The notes under the pieces were generated by a model. The model worked only from the letters and a program-made list of their open reading frames with translations, did no database searches and was not told the DNA's origin. This document shows positions 1,306-64,000 of a stretch of DNA of 64,000 nt, in pieces. How positions within the stretch are numbered: position 1 is the first letter of the stretch; each line of letters opens with the position of its first letter. The DNA comes from Vicinamibacterales bacterium (GTDB lineage: Bacteria; Acidobacteriota; Vicinamibacteria; Vicinamibacterales; 2-12-FULL-66-21), in assembly GCA_036401215.1 (NCBI GenBank), contig DASWVN010000164.1:9611-73610 (forward strand), read 5' to 3'. A program made the translations under genes and the position numbers.

Positions 1306-1500
1306 GGGTAGGGAACAGGGATCAGGGGACAGGGATCAGGGAACAGGGGACAGGGATCAGGGAACAGGGAACAGGGATGGGCTCACGTGAGACGCCCCCG
1401 CCGCTGTTCGTGCCTGCTTTCTGATCCCTACTCCCCGATCCCTACTTCCCGATCCCTGATCCCTGATCCCTACTCCCTGATCCCTGATCCCTGTTCCCTA
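1306..1500. repeat. Inverted array of GGGAWCA-type heptamers (G-rich arm 1306-1381, spacer 1382-1421, C-rich arm 1422-1500)
   Basis: Read directly. About 10 heptamer units per arm. The outer 19 nt TAGGGAACAGGGATCAGGG (1309-1327) is the exact reverse complement of 1482-1500. The spacer begins with the self-complementary CTCACGTGAG. Confidence 0.9.
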
Positions 1501-1692
1501 GTTGGGCAGCATCGTCCGCAGCTTCGCCTCGTCGGCGGCTGCCACGAGCGTCGTCCCCTTCAGCCCGCGCTTGCGGCTGCGGGTCTTGCTCGTGAGGATG
1601 TGGCGCTTGAACGCGCTGCTCCGCTTGAACTTTCCGGTGCCCGTCTTCTTGAACCGCTTGGCGGCCCCTCTATGCGTCTTCAGTTTCGGCAT
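1498..1692 (-). CDS. rpmI: 50S ribosomal protein bL35
   Basis: ORF track: [24 protein letters not shown]. An AAGGA SD lies upstream. Position between infC and rplT. Confidence 0.95.
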
Positions 1693-1706
1693 GACTGTCC
1701 TTCGGT

Positions 1707-1850
1707 GGTCCGGCTTCCGGCTCTGGGCTCCAGGCTTCCGGCCAGAAACAACCCTCTATTATCGCCTGAGATAGGGGGTCTTTGGCAACTGCCCGTCACG
1801 AAAGCAGAAAACCTCGGCCAAAAGCCGGAAGCCCAAAGCCTGCAGCCGGA
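1707..1850. repeat. Inverted repeat of GCCGGAAGC-type units (arms 1707-1743 and 1815-1850) with an inner hairpin
   Basis: GGTCCGGCTTCCGGCTCTGGGCTCCAGGCTTCCGGCC pairs against GGCCAAAAGCCGGAAGCCCAAAGCCTGCAGCCGGA. Inner stem CCCTCTAT/ATAGGGGG. Confidence 0.8.
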
Positions 1851-1856
1851 TATGGG

Positions 1857-4582: not shown

Positions 4583-4659
4583 TGGTAGGCACGGGCAGAC
4601 TCGAACTGCCGACCTCCTGCGTGTCAAGCAGGCGCTCTAACCAACTGAGCTACGCGCCT
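4583..4659 (-). tRNA. tRNA-Val (anticodon GAC), CCA encoded
   Basis: Reverse complement reads AGGCGCGTAGCTCAGTTGGTTAGAGCGCCTGCTTGACACGCAGGAGGTCGGCAGTTCGAGTCTGCCCGTGCCTACCA. It has a 7-bp acceptor stem (one G-U), a D-loop AGCTCAGTTGGTTAGAGC, an anticodon loop TTGACAC and a T-arm GGCAG-TTCGAGT-CTGCC. Confidence 0.93.
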
Positions 4660-9617: not shown

Positions 9618-10636
9618 AGCGGATCATTCTGTGGGGCGTGCTCGCGCTCGTCGTAGCCGTCGCGGCGGGAGCGGCATGGTTCTATACGAGTCTCGAACGG
9701 CCGTACAAGGGCTACGCGGAGGCGGAGACGTTCGTCGAAATTCCGTCCGGAACGGGCACCGCGGCGATGGCCCGTCGTCTGGCCGAGGCCGGGGTCGTCC
9801 GTTCTCCTGAGATCTTCCGCGCCGCGGTCTGGGCGCGCGGGGATTCCCGCCGCCTGCAGGCAGGGGAGTATCGCTTCGACCGGCCGATGTCGCCGGCCGA
9901 AGTCGTCGACAAGATCGCGCGCGGTGACGTTTACGTGCGTTCGTTGACGTTTCGGGAAGGGCTGACGATTCGGGAGAAGGCGAAGATCTTCGAGGACGCG
10001 GGCTTCGGTTCAGCGGCCGACTTCATCGCCGCGGCGAACAACGCGGACCTCGTCAAGGGATTCGACCCGGCCGCGAAGGACCTCGAGGGCTATCTCTTCC
10101 CCGACACCTACACGCTGCCGCGGACAGTGACCGCGGCGCAACTGATCGAACGCATGGTGGCCCGCTTCGAGAAGGTGCTCACGCCGGAGTTGCGCGAGCA
10201 GGCGGCGGCGCGCGGCCTGAACGTGCGCGAACTGGTCACGCTGGCCTCGCTGGTCGAGAAAGAAACCGCCAAGCCCGAGGAGCGCCCGATCGTTGCGGGC
10301 GTCTACACGAACCGGCTCAGGATCGGGATGGGCCTGCAGTGCGATCCGACCGTCATCTACGCGCTCATGCTCGAGGGCCGCTACGACGGCAACATTCGCC
10401 GCGCCGATCTCCAGATCGACAATCCGTACAACACCTACCGCTACGCCGGTCTGCCGCCCGGTCCCATCGCTGCTCCCGGCGCCGCGTCCCTGCACGCCGC
10501 CGCGAACCCGGCCGACGTCCCCTATCTCTACTTCGTCAGCCGCAACGACGGCTCACACGTCTTCTCGAAGACCCTCGACGAGCACAATCGGAACGTCTAC
10601 GACTATCAGATTCGGCGGCGCCCCTCGCCGCAGTGA
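9614..10636 (+). CDS. mltG: Endolytic murein transglycosylase MltG (YceG-like)
   Basis: N-terminal TM helix. YceG motifs LASLVEKET, AGVYTNRLRIGMGLQCDPTVIY, YNTYRYAGLPPGPIAAPG. 4-nt overlap with ruvX. Confidence 0.9.
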   Translation: MKRIILWGVLALVVAVAAGAAWFYTSLERPYKGYAEAETFVEIPSGTGTAAMARRLAEAGVVRSPEIFRAAVWARGDSRRLQAGEYRFDRPMSPAEVVDKIARGDVYVRSLTFREGLTIREKAKIFEDAGFGSAADFIAAANNADLVKGFDPAAKDLEGYLFPDTYTLPRTVTAAQLIERMVARFEKVLTPELREQAAARGLNVRELVTLASLVEKETAKPEERPIVAGVYTNRLRIGMGLQCDPTVIYALMLEGRYDGNIRRADLQIDNPYNTYRYAGLPPGPIAAPGAASLHAAANPADVPYLYFVSRNDGSHVFSKTLDEHNRNVYDYQIRRRPSPQ

Positions 10637-10637
10637 C

Positions 10638-11028
10638 GTCCGGCTTCCGGTTTTCGGCCTGCTGGGGGTTCATTGACCGCTGTTGCCGCGGCACACCGGT
10701 GGGCAGCGGTCGGCGGCCGGGGCGGCTGTCACGGGCCGACGGCTGTCGGCACTAAGAACACGAAGAACACAAGGGCCACGAAGAAGAGCACGACGCTTTT
10801 GGGTTGCTTCCGGTCACGTCGGACACTGGCTTCGGTTGAAAAACCAGCCGTGGTCATTCACCAGACAAACCAAAAGCTTCGTGATCTTCCTTAGTGTTCG
10901 TTGTGTTCTTTGTGGCCATCGTGCCCAAAAGCGTCGGCCCGTGCAGGCCAATCGACTTTGAGCTTGCAGCCCGTGCTGGCCGAAAGCCGGAAGCCGAGAG
11001 CCGGAACCCGGAAGCCGAACTCCGAATC
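10638..11028. repeat. ~390-nt composite imperfect palindrome filling the mltG / TonB-receptor convergent spacer
   Basis: The outer arms CGGCTTCCGGTTTTCGGCC (10641-10659) and 10978-10996 match 18/19 as a reverse complement. Middle pairing runs GTCACGGGCCGAC / GTCGGCCCGTG. The GAACAC-unit arms lie at about 10750-10790 and 10889-10918. Inner pairing runs GCTTTTGGGTTG / CAAACCAAAAGC. Confidence 0.8.
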
Positions 11029-11034
11029 ACGCGA

Positions 11035-16202: not shown

Positions 16203-16229
16203 CCTTACGTCCTTCCCACCCGGATATAC

Positions 16230-16291
16230 CAGCTACTGATCCTGCCCGTTACAGCTGTCCCAGCTACTGATCCTGCCCGTTACAGCTGTCC
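16230..16291. repeat. Perfect 31-bp tandem duplication
   Basis: CAGCTACTGATCCTGCCCGTTACAGCTGTCC occurs at 16230-16260 and again at 16261-16291. Confidence 0.95.
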
Positions 16292-16388
16292 CAACGCCTC
16301 ACCGCAGAGAACGCCGGGGACGCAGAGACGTGTCTGTTGGCAGGCCGGGATTGCCTGACGCCGGAGTCAGTTTCTGGAGAGACGCTGA

Positions 16389-19035: not shown

Positions 19036-19099
19036 TGTTGAAATTGTACTTCGATGTGGCGTGTGGGGGCCGCTGCGGGCGTTCCGCGGTCCGTGGTGC

Positions 19100-19131
19100 G
19101 GGGTCCGGGGTCCGGGGTCCGGGGTCCGGGG
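19100..19131. repeat. (GGGGTCC)4GGGG tandem heptamer run
   Basis: Five GGGG tracts separated by TCC, followed by further G5-G6 tracts up to about 19170. Confidence 0.95.
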
Positions 19132-19183
19132 TGCGTCGTCCGGGGGCGTGGTGCGCGGGGGCAGGGGGGCTGTGTTTCGAGTA

Positions 19184-19213: not shown

Positions 19214-19242
19214 TTGACATCCACTCATATATGGGCTATTAT
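19214..19242 (+). promoter_or_regulatory. Near-consensus sigma-70-type promoter for the hsp20 gene at 19303
   Basis: TTGACA (19214-19219), a 17-nt spacer, then TATTAT (19237-19242), within an AT-rich island in otherwise GC-rich DNA. Confidence 0.6.
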
Positions 19243-19790: not shown

Positions 19791-19886
19791 CCTTCGACTC
19801 GCTGCGCTCGCTCAGGGCGAGCCCTTCGACTCGCTGCGCTCGCTCAGGGCGAGCCCTTCGACTCACTTCGTTCGCTCAGGGCAGGC
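19791..19886. repeat. Three tandem 32-nt units CCTTCGACTCGCTGCGCTCGCTCAGGGCGAGC
   Basis: Units at 19791-19822, 19823-19854 and 19855-19886 (the third diverged). Related 39-nt cores occur at 31057-31095 and 31131-31169, and a truncated copy near 27385-27405. Confidence 0.9.
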
Positions 19887-19921
19887 ACCCGCGGACCGCG
19901 GAAAGTGTTAGTCTGAAGCCT

Positions 19922-20204: not shown

Positions 20205-20285
20205 GCACGTAGCACCAGCACCAGCACGTAGCACCAGCACGTCGCACGTAGCACCAGCACGTCGCACGTCGCACGTCGCACGTGG
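20205..20285. repeat. Tandem GCACGTM / GCACCA 6-7-mer array
   Basis: GCACGTAGCACCAGCACCAGCACGTAGCACCAGCACGTCGCACGTAGCACCAGCACGTCGCACGTCGCACGTCGCACGTGG read directly. Confidence 0.9.
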
Positions 20286-22404: not shown

Positions 22405-22504
22405 AGCACCCCGATGCACCTTGAAGCACCCCGACGCACCCCGAGGCACCCTGATGCACCTTGAAGCACCCCGACGCACCCCGACGCACCCTGACGCACC
22501 TTGA
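22405..22504. repeat. Ten tandem 10-mers GCACCYYGAN (with a 40-bp higher-order period)
   Basis: gcaccccgat gcaccttgaa gcaccccgac gcaccccgag gcaccctgat gcaccttgaa gcaccccgac gcaccccgac gcaccctgac gcaccttgac. Confidence 0.95.
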
Positions 22505-31027: not shown

Positions 31028-31199
31028 TCCCGGACCCGGACCCCGGACTCTGGACCCCACCCTTCGACTCGCTCCGCTCGCTCAGGGCAGGCACCCCGGA
31101 CCCCGGACCGCGGACCGCGGACCGCGGACCCCACCCTTCGACTCGCTCCGCTCGCTCAGGGCAGGCACCCCGGACCGCGGACCGCGGACCGCGGACAGC
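31028..31199. repeat. 74-bp tandem duplication made of a 39-nt core plus CGGACCS heptamer runs
   Basis: The core CCACCCTTCGACTCGCTCCGCTCGCTCAGGGCAGGCACC occurs at 31057-31095 and 31131-31169. CCGGACC / CGGACCG heptamers lie before, between and after the cores. Confidence 0.9.
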
Positions 31200-31211
31200 G
31201 ATAATGTCTCC

Positions 31212-32351: not shown

Positions 32352-32588
32352 GGATCAGGGATCAGGGAACAGGGTGAAACTCCGAATTCTGAACTCCGAA
32401 CTCCGAACTGACTTCGAATTCATAGTTCGGAGTTCATAATTCGGAGTTCATAGTTCGGAGTTCATAGTTCGCAGTTTTACCCGGTTCCTCATCCCCGAGC
32501 CCCCCATTCCCCATTCCCGTCCCTGATCCCTGATCCCCGATCCCTGATCCCTGACCCCTGATCCCTGTTCCCCGTTCCCTGTTCCCTC
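32351..32588. repeat. Nested two-family palindrome: outer GGGAWCA arms (32351-32374 / 32521-32588), inner AACTCCGAA / TTCGGAGTTCATA arms (32375-32410 / 32425-32477)
   Basis: Read directly. The centre carries GAATTC twice (32384-32389, 32416-32421). Confidence 0.9.
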
Positions 32589-32597
32589 GTTCTACAC

Positions 32598-33155
32598 TTG
32601 GTCATGCGATTCGCCGCTGTTCTTGCTGCCCTGATCCTGTTCGCGTCTTCGCTTTCCGCGACCGTCCTGCTCCCGGCCGAATTCCGCGAGATCGTCAATG
32701 GCTCCCAGATCATCGTTTACGGCCGCATTACCGACGTCCGCGCGGAATGGACGGACGGCCGCCGCCGGATCGAGAGCGTCGTCACGCTGCAGGCCGCCGA
32801 TTTCTATCGGGGGACGCCCGCGGAGCGCGTGACGTTCCGCGTGCCCGGCGGTCAGATCGGACGATACAAGAGCGTCACCGTCGGCGCGCCGGAGTTTCGC
32901 GCGGGAGACGAAGTCGTCCTGTTCCTGAGAGCGCGAGGTCCGGCCGTCCCGCAGGTGTTTGGTTTGAACCAGGGGGTCTTTCGCGTTCGCGTGGATACGC
33001 GTACGGGCCGTCGCCTCGTCACGCAGCCCATCTTGACGGCCCGTGCGGAAGCGCCGGAGCCAGTCGTCCGCGGTGCCGCGAACCGGCAGCCATTACCGCT
33101 GGAGCAGTTCGCGACGCGAGTGCGCACGGCGTTGCGTCAGGGAGGCGTGCGATGA
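32598..33155 (+). CDS. Secreted hypothetical protein
   Basis: Signal peptide MRFAAVLAALILFASSLSA (the ATG at 32604 may be the true start). Its stop overlaps the start of the next gene (ATGA). Confidence 0.55.
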   Translation: MVMRFAAVLAALILFASSLSATVLLPAEFREIVNGSQIIVYGRITDVRAEWTDGRRRIESVVTLQAADFYRGTPAERVTFRVPGGQIGRYKSVTVGAPEFRAGDEVVLFLRARGPAVPQVFGLNQGVFRVRVDTRTGRRLVTQPILTARAEAPEPVVRGAANRQPLPLEQFATRVRTALRQGGVR

Positions 33156-35709: not shown

Positions 35710-35786
35710 GCGTCATGATTATGTCCGGGGACAGCCTCGTTTTCACAACGGGCTGATCCCGGACATGGATGAGCTGTTCTCGTCGT

Positions 35787-36170: not shown

Positions 36171-38921
36171 ATGGCCTCGCTCAATTCCTTCAATTCGCGT
36201 CACCGTTTCACCGCCGGTGGCAGCTCCTTCGAGTTCTATAGCCTTCCGGCGCTCGAGCGCTCCGGCTATCCCGAAATCGCCAGGCTGCCGTACTCGCTCA
36301 AGATCCTGCTGGAGAACCTGCTGAGGCGCGAGGACGGGCGCTTCGTCAAAGGCGACCAGGTCGAAGCGCTGGCGCGGCGCGACGTGACCGCCGGTACACA
36401 CAAGGAAATTGCGTTCACGCCTGCGCGCGTTCTGTTGCAGGACTTCACGGGCGTTCCGGCCGTGGTCGATCTCGCGGCGATGCGCGACGGGATCGTGCGC
36501 CTCGGTGGCGACCCGGCGAAAGTCAATCCGCTGCAACCGGTCGAACTGGTCATCGACCACTCGGTGCAGGTCGATCACTACGCCGAACGAAACGCGGCCG
36601 ACCTGAACGCGGCGCTGGAGTTCGCGCGAAACAAGGAGCGGTACACGTTCCTCCGCTGGGGACAGGAGGCCTTCCGGAACTTCCGCGTCGTTCCGCCCGA
36701 CACCGGCATCGTCCACCAGGTGAACCTCGAATACCTGGCGCGCGTCGTCTTCCGCGAGGACTCGAACGGCGTCACGATCGCCTACCCGGACACGCTGGTC
36801 GGCACCGACTCCCACACCACGATGGTCAACGGGCTCGGCGTCGTCGGCTGGGGTGTCGGCGGCATCGAGGCGGAGGCGGCAATGCTGGGGCAGCCGATCT
36901 CGATGCTCATTCCCGACGTGATCGGCTTCCATCTCGTGGGACGTCTTCCCGAAGGCGCAACCGCGACGGACCTCGTGCTCACGATCACGGAACGGCTCCG
37001 CAAGTTCGGCGTCGTCGGCAAGTTCGTCGAGTTCTTCGGACCCGGCCTCGAGTCGCTGACCATTGCCGACCGTGCCACGCTCGGCAACATGTCGCCCGAG
37101 TACGGCGCGACGATCGCCATCTGCCCGATCGACGACATGACGCTCGACTACCTGCGGCTCACCGGCCGTGACGAGGCGCACGTGCAGCTCGTCGAGGCGT
37201 ACGCGAAGGAGCAGGGGCTGTTCAGCGGCGCCGGCGCGCCGGAGCCGGTCTACACGGCGACGATCGAGCTGGATCTTTCGACCGTCGAACCCAGCCTCGC
37301 CGGACCGAAGCGTCCGCAGGACCGCGTGTCGCTCCGCCAGGCGAAGAGCAAATTCGAGCAGGCGCTCGCCTCGATGCTGACCGACGGCAAAGCGGCGGCG
37401 CCGGCGGCGGCCGCCAGGCCGGGCGACGCGGCACCGGCGGCGGCATCCGCCGCGAGCGCCGCGGCGACCGCCACGCTCGAGCTGACCCCCGAGATCGACG
37501 ATCTCGATCATGGATCGGTCGTCGTCGCGGCGATCACGAGCTGTACGAACACGTCCAATCCGAGCGTCATGATCGGCGCCGGCCTGCTGGCGCGCAACGC
37601 GGTCCAGCGCGGGTTGACGGTGAAGCCATGGGTGAAGACGAGTCTCGCGCCGGGCTCGCTCATCGTCACCGAGTACTACAAGGCCTCTGGGCTGCTCCAG
37701 TACCTCGAGAAGCTCGGGTTCCACGTCGTCGGGTATGGGTGCACGACCTGTATCGGCAACAGCGGCCCGCTGCCCGACGAGGTGTCGAAGGCGGTCAGGG
37801 ACAAGAACCTCGTCGTCGTGTCGGTGTTGAGCGGCAACCGGAACTTCGAAGGACGCATCCAGTCGCAGGTGCGCGCGAACTACCTGGCCTCTCCGCCGCT
37901 GGTCGTCGCGTATGCGATCGCCGGGAAGATGCAGATCGATCTCACCAGCGAGCCGCTGGGCATCGGATCCGACGGCAAGCCGGTGTATCTGAAGGACATC
38001 TGGCCGTCGGAGCGCGAAATCCAGGAAACGATGCTCAAGTCGGTGAAGACCGAGATGTTCCAATCGAAGTACTCGGAAGTCTTCGACGGCGACGAGCGGT
38101 GGCGCGAGCTGCCGGTGCCGACGGGCGAGCAGTTCGCGTGGGACGATGAGTCGACCTACATCCGCAATCCTCCGTTCTTCGAGGGGATCACGCCCGAGCC
38201 TGCGGCGCCGGCCGACATCACGGGAGCGCGCGTGCTCGCCCTGCTCGGCGACAGCGTCACGACCGACCACATTTCACCGGCGGGAGCGATCCCGGCCGAC
38301 AGCCCCGCAGGGCAGTACCTCATCTCGAAGGGCGTGAAGCCGCGCGACTTCAACTCCTACGGCGCACGCCGCGGGAACCACGAAGTGATGATGCGCGGCA
38401 CGTTCGCCAACATCCGCCTCCGGAACCAGCTCGCGCCCGGCACCGAGGGGGGCTGGACGTCGCTGTTGCCGGACGGCGAGGTGATGAGCATCTACGATGC
38501 GTCGGTGAAATACCGCGAGCGCAACGTGCCGCTGGTCGTGATCGCGGGCAAGGAGTACGGCTCGGGCTCCTCGCGCGACTGGGCGGCGAAGGGCACGCTG
38601 CTGTTGGGGGTCAAGGCGGTCATTGCCGAGAGCTTCGAGCGCATTCACCGCAGCAATCTCGTCAACATGGGGATCCTCCCGCTGCGCTTCAAGGACGGCG
38701 AGACTGCTGCATCCCTGAAGTTGACGGGACGCGAGACGATCGAGATCCTGGGGCTGACCGATTCGCTGAAGGCTGGAGCGGAACTGACGGTGCGCGCCAC
38801 GGGTGAGGACGGCGCCGTTCGGGAGTTCACGGCGATTGCGCGGATCGATACGCCCGAGGAACTGGTCGCGTTCCGGCACGGAGGGATCCTGCCGTACGTG
38901 CTGCGGCAGCTGACGAAGTAG
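36171..38921 (+). CDS. acnA: Aconitate hydratase A
   Basis: 916 aa with full AcnA/IRP-type architecture: [45 protein letters not shown]. Confidence 0.95.
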
Positions 38922-39021
38922 GGAACAGGGAATAGGGACCAGGGATCAGGGAATAGGGATGGGGGGGGAATGGGGGATGAGGGTTACCCATCCCTCATGC
39001 CCCGTCCCCCATTCCTACTCC
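38921..39021. repeat. GGGAWYA heptamer array (38921-38982) with a short complementary C-rich arm (38990-39021)
   Basis: GGGAACAGGGAATAGGGACCAGGGATCAGGGAATAGGGATGGGGGGGGAATGGGGGATGAGGG ... ATCCCTCATGCCCCGTCCCCCATTCCTACTCC. Confidence 0.9.
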
Positions 39022-41858: not shown

Positions 41859-41876
41859 TACTCTCGCTCGCCGTCA

Positions 41877-42118
41877 GGTGCTGCGTGCTGGGGTGCTGGG
41901 TGCTACGTGCCCGTCGGTGCTGAGTGCTCGGTGCGGTGCTGGGTGCAAGGTGCCGGGGTGCTTCGTGCAAGTGCCGGGTGCTACGTGCTGGTGCGGTGCT
42001 GGGTGCTGGTGTGGTGCTACGTGCACCCAGCACCGGGCACAGCACCCAGCACCGGGCACCGCACCAGCACCGGGCACCGCCCGGCACCCAGCACCCAGCA
42101 CCCAGCACCCAGCACCCG
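41877..42118. repeat. ~240-nt palindrome of GGTGCTG-type heptamers (left arm 41877-42024, right arm CAGCACC 42028-42118)
   Basis: Read directly. The apex lies at GTGCAC near 42022-42027. The right arm ends in five perfect CAGCACC units. Confidence 0.9.
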
Positions 42119-42123
42119 GCGAT

Positions 42124-46087: not shown

Positions 46088-46951
46088 ATGTTCAAGCGGC
46101 AGCGGACCGGATCCGTCGTCTGCGCCTCGTGCGGTTCGCTCGTAGGCGTCAACGACGAGCAGTGTTATTCGTGTGGGCGCCGGAATCCCGGCCTGTGGGG
46201 CTACGCGCCGCTTCTGCGGCGGCTCGGGAACGATCTGGGCTTCGTGCCGATGATCGTGTACGGCTCGACCGGTTTGTACATCATCGCCCTTCTGCTCAGC
46301 CTGCTGTTCGGGCGGAACATCATGGGCGGCGGCAGCCCACTGGGCATTCTCGCGCCGGATCTCTACGTGCAGATCGGCCTGGGGGCAAGCGGGGCGCTGC
46401 CGGTCTTCCAGTTCGGACTGTGGTGGAGCATCCTGAGCGCGGGCTGGCTGCACGCGAGCATCCTGCACATCTTCATGAACATGATGTGGGTGCGGAGCCT
46501 CGGTCCCGTAACGGCGGACCTGTATGGCGGTCCGCGCATGGTCATCATCTACACGGCGGGCTCGGCCTGCGGCTTTCTTCTCAGCTCGATCCTCGGCCTG
46601 TTCCCGATCCCGAAGTTCGGGGCGCCGTTCACGGTCGGCGCATCGGCTCCCATCTTCGGTCTGCTGGGGGCGCTGATGTATTACGGCCGCCGCAGCGGGA
46701 GCAGCATGGTGCACTCCGAGGCGAAAGGGTACGCCGTCGCGTTGTTCGTGTTCGGGTTGATCTTTCCCGGCGTCGACAACGCCGCGCACGCCGGCGGCTT
46801 CATCGGCGGTTACGTCGCGGGGATGCTGATGGACCCGCTGAAGCCCGAGCGCATCAACCACATGGTCATTGCGCTCGCCTGCCTGATCGCGACGGTGCTC
46901 GCGATTCTGGCGTCGATCGTGACCGTGCTCCTGCCCGCCTTGCTGGCGTGA
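46088..46951 (+). CDS. Rhomboid family intramembrane serine protease with N-terminal zinc ribbon
   Basis: CASCG...CYSCG; WWSILSAGWLHASILHIFMNM; GASAPIFGLLGA (GxSxxxF); HAGGFIGGY. Confidence 0.85.
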   Translation: MFKRQRTGSVVCASCGSLVGVNDEQCYSCGRRNPGLWGYAPLLRRLGNDLGFVPMIVYGSTGLYIIALLLSLLFGRNIMGGGSPLGILAPDLYVQIGLGASGALPVFQFGLWWSILSAGWLHASILHIFMNMMWVRSLGPVTADLYGGPRMVIIYTAGSACGFLLSSILGLFPIPKFGAPFTVGASAPIFGLLGALMYYGRRSGSSMVHSEAKGYAVALFVFGLIFPGVDNAAHAGGFIGGYVAGMLMDPLKPERINHMVIALACLIATVLAILASIVTVLLPALLA

Positions 46952-47026
46952 GCGCTGGCGCGAATACAAGTCCGTGAGCGCCTGGCGCGAATACAAGTCC
47001 GTGAGCGCTAGCGCGAATACAAATCG
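46948..47026. repeat. Three tandem 26-27-bp units GTGAGCGC(C)TGGCGCGAATACAAGTCC spanning both convergent stop codons
   Basis: Units at 46948-46973, 46974-47000 and 47001-47026. Unit 1 contains the rhomboid TGA. Unit 3 contains the M64 gene TAG and its last 5 sense codons. Confidence 0.9.
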
Positions 47027-49472: not shown

Positions 49473-49743
49473 CCGCTCCTACGAGGTGCGGCGGCAGCCA
49501 CGGCACTGAACTTGTGGCTGCTGGGTGATTCGCGGAACCTGTCTCAATACCTCACCGGAGAGGACGCCGGGGGCGCAGAGGGCTTGTTGTTGGAACGGGG
49601 TGTGAAGCGCGCCGGGGTCGATCCCGATGGCGTTCACACCAGCGGGACCAACCCAAAGGTCTCTGCGTTCCTCCGCGTCCCCTGCGGTGTACGTGGTGAT
49701 GAGCAGCCGCAACCAGCAGGTTGTTACGAATTCAGGGGAGTGG

Positions 49744-50118: not shown

Positions 50119-50145
50119 AGAGAAGCATCATAACGTTCGCACGCT

Positions 50146-50333
50146 GAAACTCCGAACTATGAACTCCGAACGATGAACTGCGGAAACTCCGAACTATGAA
50201 CGCCGAACTATGAACTACAGAAACTCCGAACTGTGAACGCCGAACTATGAACTACGGAAACTCCGAACTATGAACGCCGAACTATGAACTGACGGCGCCA
50301 GTTCTGAGTTCGGCGTTCTGAGTTCGGAGTTTT
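50146..50333. repeat. Four tandem ~37-nt units built from AACTCCGAACTATG / AACGCCGAACTATG sub-repeats (50146-50294), plus one inverted arm (50301-50333)
   Basis: Read directly. The reverse complement of the right arm matches each unit at about 28 of 32 positions. Confidence 0.9.
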
Positions 50334-51996
50334 ACGCGGCCTGGGCTTTGTGCAGTTCCGCGGCTCGCTCGAGCGCCACGAGGATGTTCACGCAGATGTT
50401 GCCCTCGCCGACATGGCGATGGAACTCCGCCTGGCGCATGACTGCGGCCGGCTGCTCGCGGGCGCCGCAGAAGAGGATCGTCCGGCCGGAAGCCTGGACG
50501 CGGTCCGCGACTTCCTCGAGGGCCTTGAGTCCGGTGGCATCCAGCGCGGTCATGTTGCGGAGCCGGACGATGACGATCGGCGGCAGCCGGTCGACGCTGT
50601 CGGCGATCACCGCCACCTTGTCGGTCACGCCGAACAGCAGCGGCCCGTGGACCCTGAAGATCGCCACGTAGGACGGAATGTTCTTGTCCTGCAGGCTGTG
50701 CGCGCGGCTCGACTCGATGTAGTCCGACGTCACCATCGACACCGTCGTCGTGGCCGACACGCGGCGGATGTAGAGGAACGCGGCGAGGATCATCCCGACT
50801 TCGACCGCCACGGTGAGATCGGCGGAGACGGTCAGCGCGAAGGTGACGAGCCAGACGCTGATGTCGGTCTTGGTCATCTTCAGCAGCTGCGGGATCTCGT
50901 GCCACTCGCCCATGTTGTAGGCGACCACGAAGAGGATCGCCGCGAGCACGGCCATCGGGATGTAGCTGGCGAGCGGCGCGGCGGCCAGCAGGACCACCAG
51001 CAGCGTGACCGCGTGGATCATGCCCGCTATCGGAGTGCGGGCGCCCGCGCGGATGTTGGTCGCCGTCCGCGCGATCGCCCCCGTCGCCGGAAGGCCGCCG
51101 AAAATCGGGGACGCAATGTTCGCCACACCCTGGCCGATCAGTTCGACGTTCGGATTGTGCCGGTCGTTGCCCATCCGGTCGGAGACGACCGCTGACATCA
51201 GCGACTCGATCGCGCCGAGCGCCGCGACGGTGAGGGCCGGCCTGAGCAGCGACGGGATCAGGCCCGCCTCGAACTTCGGGAAGGTCGGATCCGGCAGGCC
51301 TCCAGGGATGCCGCCGAATCGGGATCCGATGGTGTCGATATCGAGCCCGAACGCCACCGCCGCAACGGTGCCGCCCAGCAGGGCGATGATGGTTCCCGGC
51401 ACCCGCGGCGCCACCTTGCGCAGCACGATGATGGTCGCGAGGGAGACGATCGCCAGGACCGTCGCCGCGGGAGAAATCGTGCCCGCATGCTGCACGAGGG
51501 CCGCCATGCGCTGCGCGAACTCCGAGGGGACCTCCGCCATGGAGATCCCGAAGAAATCGCGAATCTGAGTGCTCGCGATCAGCACGGCGATGCCGTTGGT
51601 AAAGCCAATGACGACCGGCCGCGGCAGGTATTTGACCGCCGCCCCCATGCCGGTGGCGCCGAGGATCAGGAGGATGACGCCGGCCATCATCGTGACCATG
51701 TAGAGGCCGGCCACGCCGAACTCCGCCACGATCCCCGCGACGACGACCACGAACGCACCCGTGGGGCCGCCAATCTGATAGCGGGATCCGCCGAGCGCGG
51801 AAATCAGGAATCCGGTGACGATGGCGCAGTAGATGCCGGCCTGCGGGGTGAGACCCGAGGCGATGGCGAACGCCATGGCGAGCGGCAGCGCGACCAGGCC
51901 GACGGTGACGCCAGCACTCAGGTCGTGCGCAAACGTCGATAACGAATAGTTTTTCAGCGCCAGCACCGAGGCCGGCGCCCAACGCGAAAACTTCAT
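50332..51996 (-). CDS. SulP family anion (sulfate/bicarbonate) transporter with STAS domain
   Basis: 554 aa; about 11 TM helices; SulP motifs (GLVALPLAMAFAIASG, GGPTGAF); C-terminal STAS (VIVRLRNMTALDATGLKALEEV). Confidence 0.9.
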   Translation of the reverse strand: MKFSRWAPASVLALKNYSLSTFAHDLSAGVTVGLVALPLAMAFAIASGLTPQAGIYCAIVTGFLISALGGSRYQIGGPTGAFVVVVAGIVAEFGVAGLYMVTMMAGVILLILGATGMGAAVKYLPRPVVIGFTNGIAVLIASTQIRDFFGISMAEVPSEFAQRMAALVQHAGTISPAATVLAIVSLATIIVLRKVAPRVPGTIIALLGGTVAAVAFGLDIDTIGSRFGGIPGGLPDPTFPKFEAGLIPSLLRPALTVAALGAIESLMSAVVSDRMGNDRHNPNVELIGQGVANIASPIFGGLPATGAIARTATNIRAGARTPIAGMIHAVTLLVVLLAAAPLASYIPMAVLAAILFVVAYNMGEWHEIPQLLKMTKTDISVWLVTFALTVSADLTVAVEVGMILAAFLYIRRVSATTTVSMVTSDYIESSRAHSLQDKNIPSYVAIFRVHGPLLFGVTDKVAVIADSVDRLPPIVIVRLRNMTALDATGLKALEEVADRVQASGRTILFCGAREQPAAVMRQAEFHRHVGEGNICVNILVALERAAELHKAQAA

Positions 51997-52081: not shown

Positions 52082-52522
52082 ATGGCGGAAACCCTCATGC
52101 GAGAGATTTTGCTGCACGGCAGTCCGACGGAGGCGTTCGACCGCTCCGTCGTCTTTGCGCGAAAGATGGCCGAATCCTTCGGTGCGCGGCTCCACGTGCT
52201 CTACACGATCGAGGATCCCCTGTCGGCCGGCTGGACGGCCGAAGTCAGCGCCGAACGGCTCCCCGAAGTGCACGAGGCGATGGAGGCGGAAGCCCGCGAG
52301 CGGCTGGCGCGCTTCATTCCGCCCGGGGATCAGGAGCGTCTGGGCGTGCGGGTGGCGCTCACGCATGGTCCCGCCGGCGACGAGCTGGTTCGCTACACGG
52401 CCGAGAACGATATCGATCTGGCGATCGTCCAGGCGCGTGTCGGCGACAGGAAGGATCCCGATATCGACTACGCGCATGCGCTGCTGGAACGCGGTCGCTG
52501 CGCGGTCTTGATGCTCCGATAG
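52082..52522 (+). CDS. Universal stress protein (UspA family)
   Basis: Usp fold motifs ...LHVLYTIEDP...ENDIDLAIV... Confidence 0.75.
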   Translation: MAETLMREILLHGSPTEAFDRSVVFARKMAESFGARLHVLYTIEDPLSAGWTAEVSAERLPEVHEAMEAEARERLARFIPPGDQERLGVRVALTHGPAGDELVRYTAENDIDLAIVQARVGDRKDPDIDYAHALLERGRCAVLMLR

Positions 52523-52627
52523 GGATCAGGGATCAGGGATCAGGGAACAGGGAACAGGGAGTAGGGATCAGGGATCAGGGATCAGGGATCAGGGATCAGG
52601 ATCAGGGATCAGGGATCAGGGTAAGGG
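52522..52627. repeat. Single-orientation array of ~15 GGGATCA/GGGAACA heptamers filling the usp / aat convergent spacer
   Basis: Read directly. One unit is shortened to 6 nt (GGATCA). No complementary arm is present. Confidence 0.95.
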
Positions 52628-53215
52628 TTACGTAAAGGTCCGGTCCAATCTCAGGGCTTGCGCCAGCAGGCGCAGGTATCGCGGTCGCGGGATCTCGAGG
52701 GCGCCGAATTGTTCCAGGTGTTCCGTGGTCCACTGGGTGTCGAGCAGCATGAAGCCGCGGTCGCGCAGGCGCTCGACGAGCGCGACCAGCGCCACCTTCG
52801 ATGCGTCGGTGACGTGATGGAACATCGACTCACCGAAAAAGGCGCCGCCCAGCGCCACGCCGTATAAACCGCCCGCCAGACGTCCGTCCTGCCACGCTTC
52901 CACCGAATGGGCGAAACCGGCCTCGTGCAGAGCGCAGTAGCTTTCGAAGATTTCGGCGTCGATCCACGTTCCCGCGTCCAGGGGGTCTCGATCGGCTTCG
53001 GCGCACGCGCGGATCACCGCCTCGAAGTCGCGATTGATGACGATCTCGAAGGTTCCCCGCCGGACGACGCGGGCGAGCCGGCGGGGGACGTGGAAGGTGT
53101 CGAGAGGAATGATCCCGCGCGGATCAGGGGAGAACCATCGGATCTCGCCGTTGCCGACTGCCATCGGAAACCACCCGCTCGCGTACGCGGATACGAGCAG
53201 GTCAACCGGCAACAT
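52628..53215 (-). CDS. aat: Leucyl/phenylalanyl-tRNA--protein transferase
   Basis: YASGWFPM...WFSPDPRGIIPL...HVPRRL...GESMFH...LLDTQ motifs. The ORF track frame is trimmed to Met122. Confidence 0.88.
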   Translation of the reverse strand: MLPVDLLVSAYASGWFPMAVGNGEIRWFSPDPRGIIPLDTFHVPRRLARVVRRGTFEIVINRDFEAVIRACAEADRDPLDAGTWIDAEIFESYCALHEAGFAHSVEAWQDGRLAGGLYGVALGGAFFGESMFHHVTDASKVALVALVERLRDRGFMLLDTQWTTEHLEQFGALEIPRPRYLRLLAQALRLDRTFT

Positions 53216-53277
53216 CGAATCGGGCGTCCACTGCGCCGCTGGCTCCGTCCGGAGGCACGCCTCGTTCCCTGATCCCG

Positions 53278-61019: not shown

Positions 61020-61082
61020 AACAGTTTCGCCCGGCCCGGCGTCTTACCGTCGGTCACTACGATTTCTGGAGGTTTTCACTCG

Positions 61083-61778
61083 ATGAAGCGTCACGCACTC
61101 GTCCCCGCCGCACTGCTGGTGGTCATTACTGCAGGCATCCAGGCCCAGCCGTTACAGACAAGCTCAGGGCAGGTTCCGGCGGCGCCGGTACCGGCACAAC
61201 AGCAACAGCGGCCGGCCCCGCCTCCGCTCGGCCCCAATGAATGGCGCATCGATCGCAGCCACTCGCAGGCGAACTTCAGCGTCCGGCACAACGTCGTGTC
61301 GACCGTGCGCGGGCAGCTTGGGCCGATCAGCGGCAGGATCGACTATGACGGCAAGGACGTCCGGTCGATCGCTGTGGACGTGACGATCGACGTGACCGCC
61401 ATCAACACCGGCAACTCCGGGCGTGACAAGGACCTGCGGAGCGAGAACTTCTTCGACGTCACGAAGTTCCCCAACATGACGTTCAAGTCGAAGCGCGTCG
61501 AACCGGGTGCCAACGGCAAGTTCAAGCTGGTGGGAGACCTGACGATCCGCGACCAGACGAAAGAGGTCGTACTCGACGTCGAGGGTCCCTCGAACGTCAT
61601 GAAGACGCAGCGCGGCGTGCTGATCGGCGCCACCGCGACGACCACGATCACCCGGCAGGATTTCGGCATCCTCTACAACCGCATGATCGAAGCGCTTCCG
61701 GTCGTCAGCGATGAAGTGCAGGTGACCATCGACCTCGAACTCAATCGTCCGGCGCTGCCGGGCACGACACAGCAGTAG
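61083..61778 (+). CDS. YceI family periplasmic protein
   Basis: W.IDRSHSQANFSVRH...V.G.....G.I.YD......I.V.I....I.TGN..RD..L.S..FFDV..FP...F.S. Confidence 0.88.
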   Translation: MKRHALVPAALLVVITAGIQAQPLQTSSGQVPAAPVPAQQQQRPAPPPLGPNEWRIDRSHSQANFSVRHNVVSTVRGQLGPISGRIDYDGKDVRSIAVDVTIDVTAINTGNSGRDKDLRSENFFDVTKFPNMTFKSKRVEPGANGKFKLVGDLTIRDQTKEVVLDVEGPSNVMKTQRGVLIGATATTTITRQDFGILYNRMIEALPVVSDEVQVTIDLELNRPALPGTTQQ

Positions 61779-61780
61779 AC

Positions 61781-62668
61781 GTGCCCTTTCTTTCGGCCCT
61801 CGCCTCCGTTGTACTCGTGGTCGTTGCCGCGCAGGCGGTCCCCATGAGCGGGTACGTGCCCGAACGCGTCTACGACACGACACGGAACGCGTTCTCGGAT
61901 TTCGAAGTCATGCTCGCCGACCTTGCGACCGCCGACGTCGTGTTCGTCGGCGAGCAGCACGACGATCCGAACACGCACCGGTTGGAGGTGGCGATCCTCG
62001 AAGGGCTGAAGCAGAGAAAAGTCCCGCCGGTCGTCTCGCTGGAAATGTTCGAGCGGGACGTGCAGAGCGTGCTGGACGCCTATCTCTCGGGCTCCGCGTC
62101 CGAGGAAGAGTTGCTGAAGACCGCGCGTCCGTGGCCGCGGTACAAGACGGACTATCGCGGATTGGTCGAACTCGCGAAGGCCAATGGCTGGCCCGTGATT
62201 GCGGCGAACGTTCCGCGGCGGATTGCCGCCGCCGTCGCGAAAGCAGGCAGCGATGCGGTGGCGCAGCTGCCCGCGGACGACCGCGCGCTGGTGGCGAAAG
62301 AGCGGCAGTGCCCTGAGGACGCGTACTTCGAGCGGTTTGCAAAGACGATGGCGGGGCATCCCGCGCCGAACCAGACGCCGGACGAGCAACGCGCCATGAT
62401 TCTGCGCTACTACTGGTCCCAGTGCGTGAAGGACGAGACCATGGCCGAATCGATCGCCAGCGCCGTCGAGCGTGGAATTCCCGTCGTGCACTACAACGGC
62501 GCGTTCCACAGCGACTTCGGTCTCGGCACCGCCGAACGCGTCCGCCGGCGTCTTCCCGGCAAACGCATCGTCGTCATCTCGATGCTGCCGGTCGAGAACC
62601 TCGATCGGCTCGAGCCCGCCGGCGAGGACCTCCTGCGCGCCGACTATCTCGTCTACACGACAAAGTAA
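61781..62668 (+). CDS. ChaN-like (haem-binding uptake, Tiki-superfamily) protein
   Basis: VFVGEQHDDPNTHRLE...SLEMFERD...WP.Y..DYR.L.E.A......V.AAN.PR. Confidence 0.7.
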   Translation: MPFLSALASVVLVVVAAQAVPMSGYVPERVYDTTRNAFSDFEVMLADLATADVVFVGEQHDDPNTHRLEVAILEGLKQRKVPPVVSLEMFERDVQSVLDAYLSGSASEEELLKTARPWPRYKTDYRGLVELAKANGWPVIAANVPRRIAAAVAKAGSDAVAQLPADDRALVAKERQCPEDAYFERFAKTMAGHPAPNQTPDEQRAMILRYYWSQCVKDETMAESIASAVERGIPVVHYNGAFHSDFGLGTAERVRRRLPGKRIVVISMLPVENLDRLEPAGEDLLRADYLVYTTK

Positions 62669-62721
62669 ACTCCAAACTCCAGACCTTAAGACTTGGGCGT
62701 TGGGAATTGGGAGTTGGGAGC
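62667..62721. terminator. Short imperfect hairpin of AAACTCC / TTGGGAG heptamers between convergent stop codons (candidate bidirectional terminator)
   Basis: AAACTCCAAACTCCAGACC-TTAAG-ACTTGGGCGTTGGGAATTGGGAGTTGGGAG. It fills the spacer exactly between TAA (62666-62668) and TAA (complement of 62722-62724). There is no T-tract. Confidence 0.4.
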
Positions 62722-64000
62722 TTATTTGAGGCGATCCGGCATCTCAGCGATCACGTAGGCCATCACCCCGATCGCGCCGGACGCGCGCGCCATATCCATC
62801 GGGTCGATCTTGTCCACCGTGTCGGCGGGCGTGTGATGCAGGAGGAAGTAGTTCCCATCCACTTCCAGCGACATCGCCGGGATGTTGCCGGCTTCGACGC
62901 TCGGACCAATATCGGCGCCTCCACCTGACGGCCCGATCTGGTCCGCCTGGATCCCGCGTAGAAGCGTGGCGATATCGCGCACGCGGGCGCGGGCGCTCTC
63001 GCTGCCGCTGAAGCCAAACCCTGTCGGCCGGAACACGCCGGAATCGGATTCCAGCATCAGCACGTGATCCTCGAGTTGATCGCGGTAGCGGTCGCGGTAG
63101 GCCGTGCCGCCACGCAGGCCGTTCTCTTCGTTCGTCCAGAGCACGACGCGGACGGTGCGGCGCGGCCGCAGGTTCAACTTCTTCATGAGACGGAGCGCCT
63201 CCCACGTCACCACGCACCCGCCGCCGTCGTCGGTGGACCCCGTACCCACGTCCCACGAATCGATGTGCCCGCCGACGACGATCACTTCGTCGGGACGTTC
63301 ACGGCCGCGGATCTCACCGACGACGTTGAAGGAGTCGGCGTCGGGGAGCATGCGCGCGTCCATCTTGAGGCGGAGCCGGATCGTCGTGCCGCGATCCACC
63401 ATGCGCTGGAGACGATCGGCGTCCTCGGTAGTGATCGCGGCTCCGGGGATCTTCGGCAGGGCAGGATCGTAGTTCAGGCCGCCGGTGTGCGGCGTGCGCA
63501 GCCCTGGCGGGCCAACCGAGCGGACGAGCGCCGCCACGGCGCCGAGCGCCGCGGCGCGCGACGGTCCGGCGGACCGGTGACGGACCGTCTCGCCGTAGGT
63601 CGTAAACGGCACGTTGTAGAGGACGATCTTGCCCTTCACGCGGTCGCCCGCGGCATCCAGTTCCTGGAAGTTGCGGACGATCAGCAGTTCGCCTTCGACC
63701 CCCTCCGGTGGTGTTCCGACGCTGTTGCCGAGGCCGAGCATGACCAGCGAACTCTGGCGTGGCGAGACGATCTCGAGGCTCTCCTGTCCGCGTACCCAGT
63801 GCGGCACCTTCACCGGCTCCTTGCGAACGTTCTCCAAACCGTCCTTCTTCATCTGCTCGACGGCCCAGTCGATCGCGTCCTCCAGCGCCTGCGATCCACT
63901 CAGGCGATGGCCGAACGTGTCGCCGAGTTCGGCCAGCCGTTCCCAGGCGAAATTCGAGGACAGCGCTTCCCCGAGCAGTCGCGCTGCGGGTTCACGATAC
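62722..64000 (-). CDS. M28 family aminopeptidase (N-terminus runs off the window end)
   Basis: The ORF track starts at an internal Met. The frame stays open to 64000 (…RLLGEALSSNFAWERLAELGDTFGHRLSGSQALEDAIDWAVEQMKKDG…). Metal-site motifs GGHIDSWDVGTGSTDDGGG and WTNEENGLRG. Confidence 0.85.
   Translation of the reverse strand, partial: YREPAARLLGEALSSNFAWERLAELGDTFGHRLSGSQALEDAIDWAVEQMKKDGLENVRKEPVKVPHWVRGQESLEIVSPRQSSLVMLGLGNSVGTPPEGVEGELLIVRNFQELDAAGDRVKGKIVLYNVPFTTYGETVRHRSAGPSRAAALGAVAALVRSVGPPGLRTPHTGGLNYDPALPKIPGAAITTEDADRLQRMVDRGTTIRLRLKMDARMLPDADSFNVVGEIRGRERPDEVIVVGGHIDSWDVGTGSTDDGGGCVVTWEALRLMKKLNLRPRRTVRVVLWTNEENGLRGGTAYRDRYRDQLEDHVLMLESDSGVFRPTGFGFSGSESARARVRDIATLLRGIQADQIGPSGGGADIGPSVEAGNIPAMSLEVDGNYFLLHHTPADTVDKIDPMDMARASGAIGVMAYVIAEMPDRLK

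Follow-up and report, generated by a model that had tools for sequence, protein, structure and literature searches.

Heptameric tandem repeats, many of them in inverted pairs, in the intergenic DNA of a Vicinamibacterales genome segment

The short tandemly repeated repetitive (STRR) sequences of cyanobacteria have the consensus units CCCCAGT, TTGGTCA and CAACAGT, and repetitive extragenic palindromic (REP) elements are stabilisers of mRNA 3' ends and partial terminators. Here we describe arrays of 7-nucleotide (nt) tandem units, many of them arranged as inverted pairs, in a 64-kb stretch of a Vicinamibacterales assembly (contig DASWVN010000164.1; the whole stretch is referred to as the window), and compare them with these and other systems. 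Heptanucleotides are the most abundant class of long simple sequence repeats (SSRs) in large genomes according to Mrazek et al. (2007), as summarised in PMC4679880 and PMC4692102, and the former summary also gives their idea that 7 nt perhaps matches the stretch of DNA touching the polymerase. In Xanthomonas campestris and Xanthomonas axonopodis, GGGAATC heptamers were found at 186 and 183 loci, 89 to 93% of them intergenic, at a mean distance of 28 nt from the upstream open reading frame (ORF) and rarely between divergent genes (Rehm et al. 2015, PMC4692102). The same study counted 70 to 75 inverted pairs with stem-loop or cruciform potential, reported lengths that vary between species, observed G-quadruplex (G4) formation in vitro by circular dichroism (CD) spectroscopy and found no regulatory role; it also describes GGGGA(C/T)T repeats in Nostoc PCC 7120, where paired inverted arrays are few. 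Geobacter metallireducens carries GGACCGG in four copies at 49 loci, together with paired elements of five MTYCTGA units termed global regulator sites (Aklujkar et al. 2009, PMC2700814), and TAACTGA repeats are known from marine Beggiatoaceae, cyanobacteria and Bacteroidetes (MacGregor 2015, PMC4679880).

The arrays in the window are intergenic heptameric SSRs, a kind known from other phyla, and are therefore not categorically new. This assignment follows from unit length, intergenic bias, closeness to stop codons, inverted pairs and length polymorphism, all of which were found. A first-pass annotation of the window, made from the letters alone, had named cyanobacterial STRR as a relevant precedent, rightly, and had known of no described equivalent, which the heptamer repeats published for Xanthomonas, Geobacter, Beggiatoaceae, cyanobacteria and Bacteroidetes contradict. 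A literature search for such repeats in Acidobacteria found no report.

Period, extent and position of the arrays

Repeats were detected in the window with Tandem Repeats Finder (TRF) and with a lag-identity scan accompanied by shuffled controls. TRF returned 18 arrays of period 7, and the scan found seven segments at lag 7, seven at lag 14 and one at lag 10, while lags 4 to 6, 8, 9, 11 to 13 and 15 gave none in the window, as did shuffled sequence; the arrays lie far above chance expectation. The base unit is specifically 7 nt, the exceptions being a 10-nt unit at 22405-22504 and a mixture of 6 and 7 nt at 20205-20285. Periods of 14, 20, 21, 37, 40 and 74 nt reported by TRF are higher-order blocks of the basic units. 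The range of 6 to 14 nt initially given for the units was too wide, 14 nt being a higher-order multiple, and a family listed with the 9-nt unit GCCGGAAGC has an actual period of 7 (GCCGGAA).

By our own gene map, arrays are present in 14 of the 35 spacers of at least 40 nt and in 12 of the 23 of at least 100 nt. They make up 2.2 kb, equal to 3.5% of the window and 31% of its noncoding DNA, and 2180 of the 2249 array bases are intergenic. At least seven unit families occur side by side in this genome (G+C content of the window, 64 to 70%), and several recur among the window spacers: GGGAWCA in four or five, AACTCCG/AACTCCC in three or four, AAGCCGG in two and ACCSCGG in three. Every locus of the first-pass annotation proved to be a tandem array, with boundaries exact or a few bases off, as judged from TRF and the sequences themselves. 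Its statement that at least 16 such regions occupy most intergenic spacers was too high, and its own list spans 13 spacers; it missed a small array at 849-889 and REP-like units at 19791-19882 and, twice, within 31029-31200.

For 15 of 55 genes, an array starts 0 to 17 nt past the stop codon, and the arrays extend until the next ribosome-binding site or the stop codon of a converging gene is reached. Their share of the spacer is 87 to 100% in codirectional and convergent settings, compared with about 24% in the two divergent promoter spacers. All four GGGAWCA arrays at gene ends in the window are fused to a TAG stop codon (TAG-GGAWCAGGG), and arrays of the AACTCCG type are fused to TAA or TGA. 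Stop-like triplets occur at both outer ends of the palindromes even where no gene ends (1309-1311, 32375-32377, 32477-32479 and 50145-50147). Fusion to TAG was rejected as a general rule for GGGAWCA, being present at only 9 of 85 metagenome loci, and the exact fusion is therefore lineage specific. By eye, a TAA or TGA a few bases upstream seemed common at the metagenome loci, although this was not counted.

The genes in the window are conserved housekeeping genes, including pheS, rplT, rpmI, infC, thrS, ruvX, yceG, two hsp20 genes, rpoZ, lpxD, lpxB, acnA and queG (identified with Pfam, and L35 and L20 by protein look-up), and no functional theme was apparent among the genes flanking the arrays (Pfam, about 50 window proteins). 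The host belongs to the Vicinamibacterales (Acidobacteriota), and the nearest relatives of its L20 protein are from Vicinamibacterales metagenome-assembled genomes (MAGs), with up to 89% identity.

Hairpins and sequence turnover

The window holds 14 heptamer-type loci (A0 to A4 and A6 to A14 in Table 1); A5 consists of 32-nt REP-like units. Nine of the 14 are two-armed, a run of units being followed by a complementary run (A0, A1, A2, A3, A9, A10, A11, A12 and A14), and five are one-armed (A4, A6, A7, A8 and A13). Folding was scored as z-scores against dinucleotide shuffles, with paired values written as x / y. The two-armed loci are predicted to form hairpins of 50 to 400 nt, with z-scores down to -12 for RNA and of -7.6 and -8.6 with DNA parameters at A1 and A11, respectively, and the one-armed loci fold no better than shuffles. 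The long hairpins and the cruciform potential expected in the first pass are thus borne out at the two-armed loci, whereas the single architecture that it proposed, a run of units followed by an opposite run, extends to about 9 of the 14 loci. Two loci had also been described as nested. This is exact for 32349-32588, where AACTCCG lies inside GGGAWCA, but at 10638-11028 heptamers form only the outer 22 nt or so on one side and 48 nt or so on the other. Arm order is fixed within each family, with the G-rich arm of GGGAWCA coming first in all three window hairpins and in 13 metagenome loci against 1.

The hairpins fold equally well on either strand, also with DNA parameters (tested for A1 and A11). 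Among 16 hairpins with a known direction of transcription, a comparison of sense and antisense folding gave 64 against 54 G-U pairs, and the sense strand was the more stable in about 11 of the 16, often marginally. The comparison was dropped as evidence for an RNA role, as these hairpins show no usable asymmetry between strands. Array-free spacers were unstructured (z about 0), with two exceptions. Nonrepetitive long hairpins were observed at 49473-49743 (z -4.6, between convergent epimerase and fer2 genes) and at 35720-35767 (z -4.8); as both lack heptamers, long spacer hairpins are not confined to repeat arrays. A promoter-like sequence, TTGCCA-N19-GATAAT, lies inside the A2 palindrome upstream of rpmI (1788-1758, minus strand). 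It is kept at about 70-100 in the related locus L222, there also between heptamer arms (CGGCTTY and AAGCCGN).

Same-species contigs were obtained by exact-protein look-ups, in which five window proteins were matched and strain variants were thus seen for A1, A4 and A10 to A13; look-ups with aconitase, Fer2, LpxB (from 31212) and RpoZ (from 19922 and from 19760) returned no match. Logan contigs of run SRR11285378 match the window at 100% identity through A1, A4, A10, A11 and A13 (over 935 to 3545 nt), the MAG GCA_964618375.1 holds the same arrays, and close array variants occur in at least 10 further runs or assemblies, including an NCBI MAG and ENA and JGI assemblies. The possibility that the arrays are artefacts of collapsed or chimeric low-complexity reads is effectively refuted by these independent short-read assemblies, some of them base-for-base identical, and by related arrays at syntenic positions in many independent MAGs. 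What speaks for it is that arrays evidently disturb assembly: the same-species short-read contigs (L001 to L006, L087 to L098 and L219 to L231) are nearly all shorter than 4 kb, with one JGI contig of 6.5 kb, and many stop within arrays. Such short contigs ending in arrays suggest that arrays occur every few kilobases throughout the genome, and heptamer arrays are likely a main cause of the poor short-read assembly of this lineage.

In variant contigs whose genes are 98.4 to 99.7% identical to those of the window, A1 is shorter by 21 nt in one strain (three units fewer), A4 is longer by 14 nt by two different routes with the remaining 250 nt or so of the roughly 300-nt aligned upstream region unchanged, A11 has one additional 8-nt unit, A13 has a single unit substituted, and A12 is rearranged. 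The loop and right arm of A10 differ between strains 98.4% identical, the palindromic right arm of the window corresponding to unrelated loop sequence in a strain. Strains with 98 to 99% identical genes thus gain and lose array sequence in whole units or in blocks of them.

Because gene order from yceG to pheS is conserved, the spacers can be compared across relatives. The rpmI-rplT spacer, a GGGAWCA hairpin in the window, holds hairpins of ATCGCTG (L009), CCAGCNN (L014), AAAGTTC (L016), GGGCTAC (L022), AGGGATG (L025) or GATTCCC (L030) units in other loci, and a short spacer or a nonrepetitive GC hairpin in other lineages. Replacement is also seen over short distances. The loci L222 and L223 encode identical L35 proteins. 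In L223, whose flanks are 96 to 97% identical to the window at the DNA level, a 130-nt CGGCTTT/GCCGAGA hairpin stands in place of the 208-nt GGGAWCA spacer of the window, and in L222, whose L35 gene is 94% identical, an 81-nt GATCNCT/AGGGATT hairpin is found. The L223 contig has a coverage of about 1.9x, departs from the window after approximately codon 30 of rplT and may be chimeric downstream; only its spacer, which is orthologous on both sides, was used. The spacer after yceG contains the AAGCCGG family, as at A3, in L008, a TCCCAAC hairpin in L007 and nothing in several other loci; the unit family of this L007 hairpin is that of A14. Families of the window also occur at nonorthologous spacers of relatives, namely, AGGGATC in L022, ACCCAGC in L014 and AACTCCC in L007.

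More widely, period-7 arrays are frequent in many Vicinamibacterales loci, number 10 in 20 kb of a Pyrinomonadaceae locus and occur in Oscillochloris and Tolypothrix loci; of the remaining outgroup loci, only L064 and L068 have a period-7 array, one each. Loci with a GC content of at least 0.71 (L013, L018 and L021, and L041 in its syntenic spacers) have few or no arrays. GGGAWCA arrays of at least 4.4 units were found on at least 120 metagenome contigs, and the GC range of these contigs (0.34 to 0.72) points to many unrelated taxa.

Origin and effect of the arrays

The roughly 50 window proteins fall into housekeeping families in Pfam, with no transposase, in agreement with the first pass, and no REP-associated tyrosine transposase (RAYT; a Y1 transposase) among them. 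Rfam at the gathering score matched nothing in the window except a tRNA (4586-4659), so that the arrays find no place in a named family there, and the subthreshold matches to miRNA precursors on A1 and A11 at E<0.1 are those of generic long hairpins. CRISPR arrays, in which direct repeats of 23 to 50 nt alternate with unique spacers of about that length, had already been discounted, correctly, as the 7- to 10-nt units are contiguous and have no spacers. Hairpin-plus-T-run sites in positions 1-60000 numbered 12, 9 and 11, compared with 11.2, 8.8 and 11.0 expected, and none lies at an array or gene end. The canonical intrinsic terminator, one of the roles initially suggested, was rejected, since array ends lack a T-run and such sites are at chance level; the organism apparently does without canonical intrinsic terminators in this interval.

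Considering kind, origin and effect jointly, we judge it rather probable that these are heptameric SSRs formed by slippage and inverted duplication, with hairpins at gene 3' ends as their effect. Array growth would come from slippage during replication or from unequal exchange of the 7-nt units. Mismatch repair probably overlooks loops of such a size, and inside genes a 7-nt unit would not be tolerable in frame. Expansion would proceed until it meets a selected sequence, such as a stop codon, ribosome-binding site or promoter, and the spacer-filling pattern fits expansion bounded in this way. Inverted duplication or template switching, acting on the DNA, would create the opposite arm and keep it renewed, and families would probably spread among spacers by recombination or gene conversion between arrays. 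Two-armed loci would then place a very stable hairpin, in transcript or DNA, directly after a stop codon, where it would act as a T-run-independent 3'-end barrier through termination, protection from 3' exonucleases or both. By analogy with REP elements, the most likely effect of two-armed arrays would be such a barrier for transcript 3' ends or stabilisation of the mRNA, while the one-armed arrays, like arms located in promoter regions, probably amount to near-neutral filler. Units containing G3 are predicted to be able to form G-quadruplexes in addition.

The polymorphisms in multiples of the unit and the higher-order periods, which are typical of unequal exchange, support whole-unit slippage or unequal exchange as the origin. 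Strand-symmetric folding, the changed right arm of A10 and the position of the A2 arms around a promoter-like site support inverted duplication or template switching at the DNA level. However, several observations weigh against slippage and 3'-end hairpins as a full account. Slippage alone explains neither the recurrence of a few families at several spacers and at nonorthologous spacers of relatives, nor the wholesale replacement of a family in L223 between nearly identical flanks, nor the fixed arm order. Five loci are one-armed and form no hairpin, and the similar folding of both strands, together with the G-U counts, gives no sign of RNA-specific selection. Just one arm of A2 would be transcribed from the promoter-like site that its arms flank, which argues against a purely RNA-level rationale. 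Finally, none of the tests made explains 7 nt instead of 5 or 8.

The features that slippage leaves unexplained, i.e., family recurrence, replacement and fixed arm order, keep alive, at a low probability, the reading that the arrays are nonautonomous mobile hairpin cassettes, similar to miniature transposable elements with inverted repeats (MITEs) or to REPINs. These would be copied between spacers by a hairpin-recognising enzyme whose gene lies outside the window (e.g., a RAYT or an IS200-type Y1 enzyme) or by gene conversion. Stop codons, TA sites and the loops of other cassettes would serve as insertion sites, with unit slippage being secondary. We regard this as unlikely but worth keeping in view, given that the same families occupy several window spacers and nonorthologous spacers of other Vicinamibacterales MAGs, that the family in the rpmI-rplT spacer was swapped in L223, that A9 is nested, and that stop-like triplets stand at both outer ends even away from gene ends. 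On the other hand, copies have only the repeat unit in common, with unrelated loops and interiors, and accordingly neither a conserved MITE core nor the shared 20- to 40-nt palindrome of REP and REPIN elements was found, apart from one 32- to 37-nt unit in five copies. The terminal TA(G) is part of the palindrome and cannot be read as a target-site duplication. Two sequences reported in the first pass as shared by A2 and A3 are indeed present in both, the 13-mer GTCCGGCTTCCGG at 1708 and 10638 and the 18-mer GGCCRAAAGCCGGAAGCC at 1816 and 10978, but they were ruled out as element termini, being just two consecutive family units, with the 18-mer internal. What distinguishes strains is the gain or loss of whole units, not of an entire element; the strains and relatives compared gave no empty site, and no transposase turned up among about 50 window proteins. 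The GC range of contigs with GGGAWCA arrays also points to a convergent preference for this unit rather than to one mobile family. The first-pass suggestion of mobile elements thus receives indirect support from recurrence, replacement and one nested locus, but there is no conserved nonrepeat core and no separable target duplication. A more specific version, which we consider somewhat more doubtful still, is a common stock of palindromic heptamer cassettes in the Vicinamibacterales. These would be written or copied by an active process into the gap that separates a stop codon from the following ribosome-binding site or stop codon, and would carry stop triplets of their own (TAG-GGAWCA..., TRA-AACTCCG...). 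Each family would hold to one arm order, one family would displace another at a given slot within a few percent of sequence divergence, and cassettes would nest in one another's loops. If true, this would require period-7, sequence-independent machinery or a new hairpin-specific recombination system, and a hairpin after the stop codon would be a selected feature of gene ends in these bacteria.

Two further explanations are improbable. Arrays could be G-quadruplex or i-motif elements that regulate transcription or translation, as proposed for Xanthomonas GGGAATC. All 11 segments in the window matching four G3 tracts with N1-7 between them lie inside arrays, with none elsewhere, compared with about 16 expected from composition in block-wise shuffles, and coding DNA seems to avoid the motif. 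GGGAWCA arrays of at least four units are also widespread in metagenomes, and similar units form G4 by CD spectroscopy (PMC4692102). In silico, however, G4 potential is limited to families with G-runs of at least 3 (GGGAWCA, GGGGTCC, part of the GGGTGCT-type units and the short TTGGGAG run of A14), so that the quadruplex role considered in the first pass would apply to these, and most families are unable to form G4, namely, AACTCCG, GCCGGAA, CCGGACC/CGCGGAC with its C-rich strand, GCACGTA, the GCACC 10-mers and AAAATGG. In addition, the duplex or hairpin competes at two-armed loci, arrays of 9 to 15 units go far beyond the four tracts required, and even in Xanthomonas a regulatory role was not found (PMC4692102). 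Similarly poor prospects attach to arrays as multisite platforms for a sequence-specific protein, such as a global regulator, a nucleoid-associated protein or an RNA binder of the CsrA, S1 or Csp type. The recurring units have conserved cores (GGGA, CTCC and CCGG) and adjoin start and stop codons, and protein binding was suggested for the Geobacter elements (PMC2700814) and TAACTGA repeats (PMC4679880). Yet at least seven unrelated families would need equally many binders, close relatives have different families at a given spacer, copy number varies freely among strains, and the neighbouring genes lack a functional theme.

Heptamers have been noted since 2007 as the commonest long SSR of large bacterial genomes. 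This genome is favourable for their study, as families lie side by side, arms are very long, nesting occurs, and close strains and graded relatives are available in public metagenomes. Since these strains and relatives show both unit changes and replacement, the mutation process and selection should be separable. In practical terms, short-read assemblies of this abundant soil lineage fall apart at the arrays into fragments a few kilobases long, and ORF callers are misled; in the window, predicted ORFs pass through arrays at 19054, 19760, 22034 and 30834.

Individual loci and comparison with described systems

Table 1. Repeat loci of the window, with subdivisions, genomic context, means of detection and fold z-scores (interval folded in brackets)
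Locus	Position	Strand	Array	Context	Detection	Fold z-score
A0	849-889		Mini heptamer hairpin, AAAATGG-type units and complement; 11-bp stem 849-878	rplT/pheS spacer	TRF, period 7 x 3.9 at 863-889	-3.6 and -6.7 / -5.1
A1	1309-1500		GGGAWCA palindrome; G-rich arm 1309-1381, loop 1382-1420, C-rich arm 1421-1500	Fills rpmI-rplT spacer; CTA 1498-1500 is the rpmI stop codon (minus strand)	TRF, folding	RNA -7.2 / -12.4, DNA parameters -7.6 (1296-1502)
A2	1707-1852		Degenerate CCGGCTT / AAGCCGG arms, about 1708-1745 and 1813-1852	infC-rpmI spacer	TRF (low threshold), AAGCCGG x 5	RNA -3.5 / -4.6 (1697-1856)
A3	10638-11034		398-nt nested palindrome; outer arms CCGGCTT / GCCGGAA 10638-10660 and 10978-11026; interior an imperfect palindrome of about 320 nt, largely nonrepetitive, with a short GAACACR stretch (about 10750-10925)	Between convergent yceG (mltG) and TonB-receptor genes	TRF match 10979-11017	RNA -10.7 (10637-11034)
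A4	19083-19145	+	One-armed GGGGTCC x 9	Divergent hsp20/hsp20 promoter region	TRF	RNA -1.1 / -0.1, no hairpin
A5	19791-19900	+	Three tandem 32-nt REP-like units (CCTTCGACTCGCTGCGCTCGCTCAGGGCGAGC), then GGACCGCGG	Upstream of rpoZ	TRF, period 32 x 2.9	
A6	20205-20285	+	One-armed GCACGTA / GCACCA, 6/7-nt units, 20-nt higher order	Begins 7 nt past rpoZ stop codon	TRF	-1.0 / +0.7
A7	22405-22504	+	One-armed 10-nt units (GCACCCCGAC / GCACCTTGAA), 20/40-nt higher order	Divergent spacer, just upstream of Memo-family gene	TRF, period 10 x 9.5; sole lag-10 segment	+2.2 / -1.6
A8	31028-31200	+	One-armed CCGGACC / CGCGGAC, 74-nt higher-order repeat, broken up by two 37-nt REP-like units	Fills M16-peptidase/lpxB spacer from the base after the TGA stop codon	TRF	-0.9 / -1.1
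A9	32349-32588		Nested palindrome; outer GGGAWCA arms 32349-32374 and 32493-32588, inner AACTCCG arms 32375-32409 and 32419-32479	After lpxB stop codon (TAG 32349-32351)	TRF	RNA -9.9 / -6.6 (32352-32600)
A10	38919-39021		GGGAWYA G-arm, then short C-rich arm	acnA-queG spacer, from TAG stop codon to just short of queG start	TRF	-2.2 / -1.9; second computation -5.5 / -5.1
A11	41877-42118		GGTGCTG arm 41877-42018, GCACCCA arm 42023-42117; 265-nt hairpin	Convergent DUF892/HEAT-repeat spacer	TRF	RNA -10.3 / -10.6, DNA parameters -8.6 (41859-42123)
A12	50145-50334		AACTCCG / GAACTAT, 37-nt higher order; 150-nt arm 50146-50295, short complementary arm 50300-50331	Fills sulP-fer2 spacer; TTA 50332-50334 is the sulP stop codon	TRF	RNA -6.2 / -8.0 (50119-50331)
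A13	52520-52627	+	One-armed GGGATCA x 14.6; G4 motif	Whole spacer between convergent stop codons, usp TAG 52520-52522 and aat TTA 52628-52630	TRF, 92% matches	
A14	62666-62724		Mini AACTCCA / TTGGGAG hairpin	Convergent ChaN-like and M28 peptidase genes, from stop codon to stop codon	TRF	-1.1 / -2.6

A second type of repeat is embedded in the ACCSCGG heptamer arrays. This REP-like unit of 32 to 37 nt, CCCTTCGACTCGCTSCGCTCGCTCAGGGCRRGC, contains the small palindrome GCTCGC-TCAGG-GCGAGC and was found by pattern search in five copies in the window (three at 19791-19882 and one each at 31060-31096 and 31134-31170, the last two with pattern hits at 31063 and 31137), with none expected; the other loci retrieved contain no copy. 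Read in frame, the unit pushes the apparent start of the rpoZ ORF back to 19760. The second hsp20 gene really begins at about 19301, and between it and A4 lies a near-consensus sigma-70-type promoter, TTGACA-17-TATTAT (11 of 12 matches; 19214-19242, plus strand). Directly after the TGA stop codon of an ApaG-domain gene (53255-53277, minus strand), two units, GGGATCA GGGAACG, may represent the seed or remnant of a GGGAWCA array. Other tandem repeats in the window are a perfect duplication in the spacer downstream of xseA (16229-16293, 31 nt x 2.1, 100% identity), which is not heptameric, and a 27-nt repeat (x 2.9) at 46947-47022 that covers the converging stop codons of a rhomboid gene (46949-46951) and an M64 peptidase gene (47008-47010).

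Among the related loci, conserved structured leaders precede rpmI or rplT in L222 (150-255) and L008 (about 9870-9995), with GCGAGGCGCC...GTCCGCCGnAGGCGGAC...GGGGTGGGGCCCCGCGAGC in common, and the Holophagae loci L036, L037 and L047 share GGTTCAACCCGGTGGCTGAGGCCACCCCCGATG upstream of rplT. The structured leaders may be autoregulatory leaders of ribosomal-protein genes. Between infC and rplT of L008 (about 9722-10000), just the first nine rpmI codons were detected, beside an AAGCCGC array, and rpmI may have been lost, displaced or misassembled in this Vicinamibacterales MAG.

The arrays most closely recall those of Xanthomonas and Nostoc, with which they share 7-nt tandem units containing a G3 tract, a mostly intergenic location near the upstream stop codon and rarity between divergent genes. 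Further likenesses to Xanthomonas are the many convergent (inverted) pairs, length variation at the same spacer and the absence of a transposase, and GGGAWCA is nearly the same unit as GGGAATC. However, Xanthomonas has one family with a mode of four units, whereas at least seven unrelated families, arms of 10 to 20 units and nesting are found here, arrays make up about one-third of the noncoding DNA, several families have no G4 potential, and the Acidobacteriota host is new. As in the STRR of Calothrix and Anabaena and other long SSRs of 5- to 11-nt units, several heptamer families share one large genome of a free-living organism and are intergenic. The dominance of heptamers likewise agrees with the long SSRs of Mrazek et al. 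(2007), for which slippage and the polymerase-footprint hypothesis were proposed according to the summaries cited above. Identity with cyanobacterial STRR was ruled out, as the host belongs to the Vicinamibacterales and the units differ from the STRR consensus; moreover, inverted pairs are few in Nostoc but the majority here.

The Geobacter metallireducens elements are likewise tandem heptamers at dozens of loci, some in strand-switching pairs, and GGACCGG resembles CCGGACC/CGCGGAC. They differ in having a fixed copy number of four or five, in lying also inside genes and in being read as regulator-binding or RNA elements, and no strain-level length variation was reported for them, unlike for the window arrays. 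TAACTGA repeats, too, are direct heptamer repeats between genes, found at many loci and in ribosomal-protein operons among others, with stop triplets in the unit and a patchy phylogeny; in contrast to the window arrays, they form a single family, are nearly all direct (one is indirect) and lie just upstream of start codons. REP elements, bacterial interspersed mosaic elements (BIMEs) and REPINs resemble the arrays as extragenic hairpins after stop codons, in operons and between convergent genes, with several families per genome. They are, however, imperfect palindromes of 20 to 40 nt that are copied whole and mobilised by RAYT, which was not seen in the window, where only the 32- to 37-nt unit at 19791-19882 and within 31029-31200 is REP-like. 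Compared with these systems, what sets the window apart is the number of families, their nesting, the hairpins at conserved positions with varying sequence, and the Acidobacteriota host.

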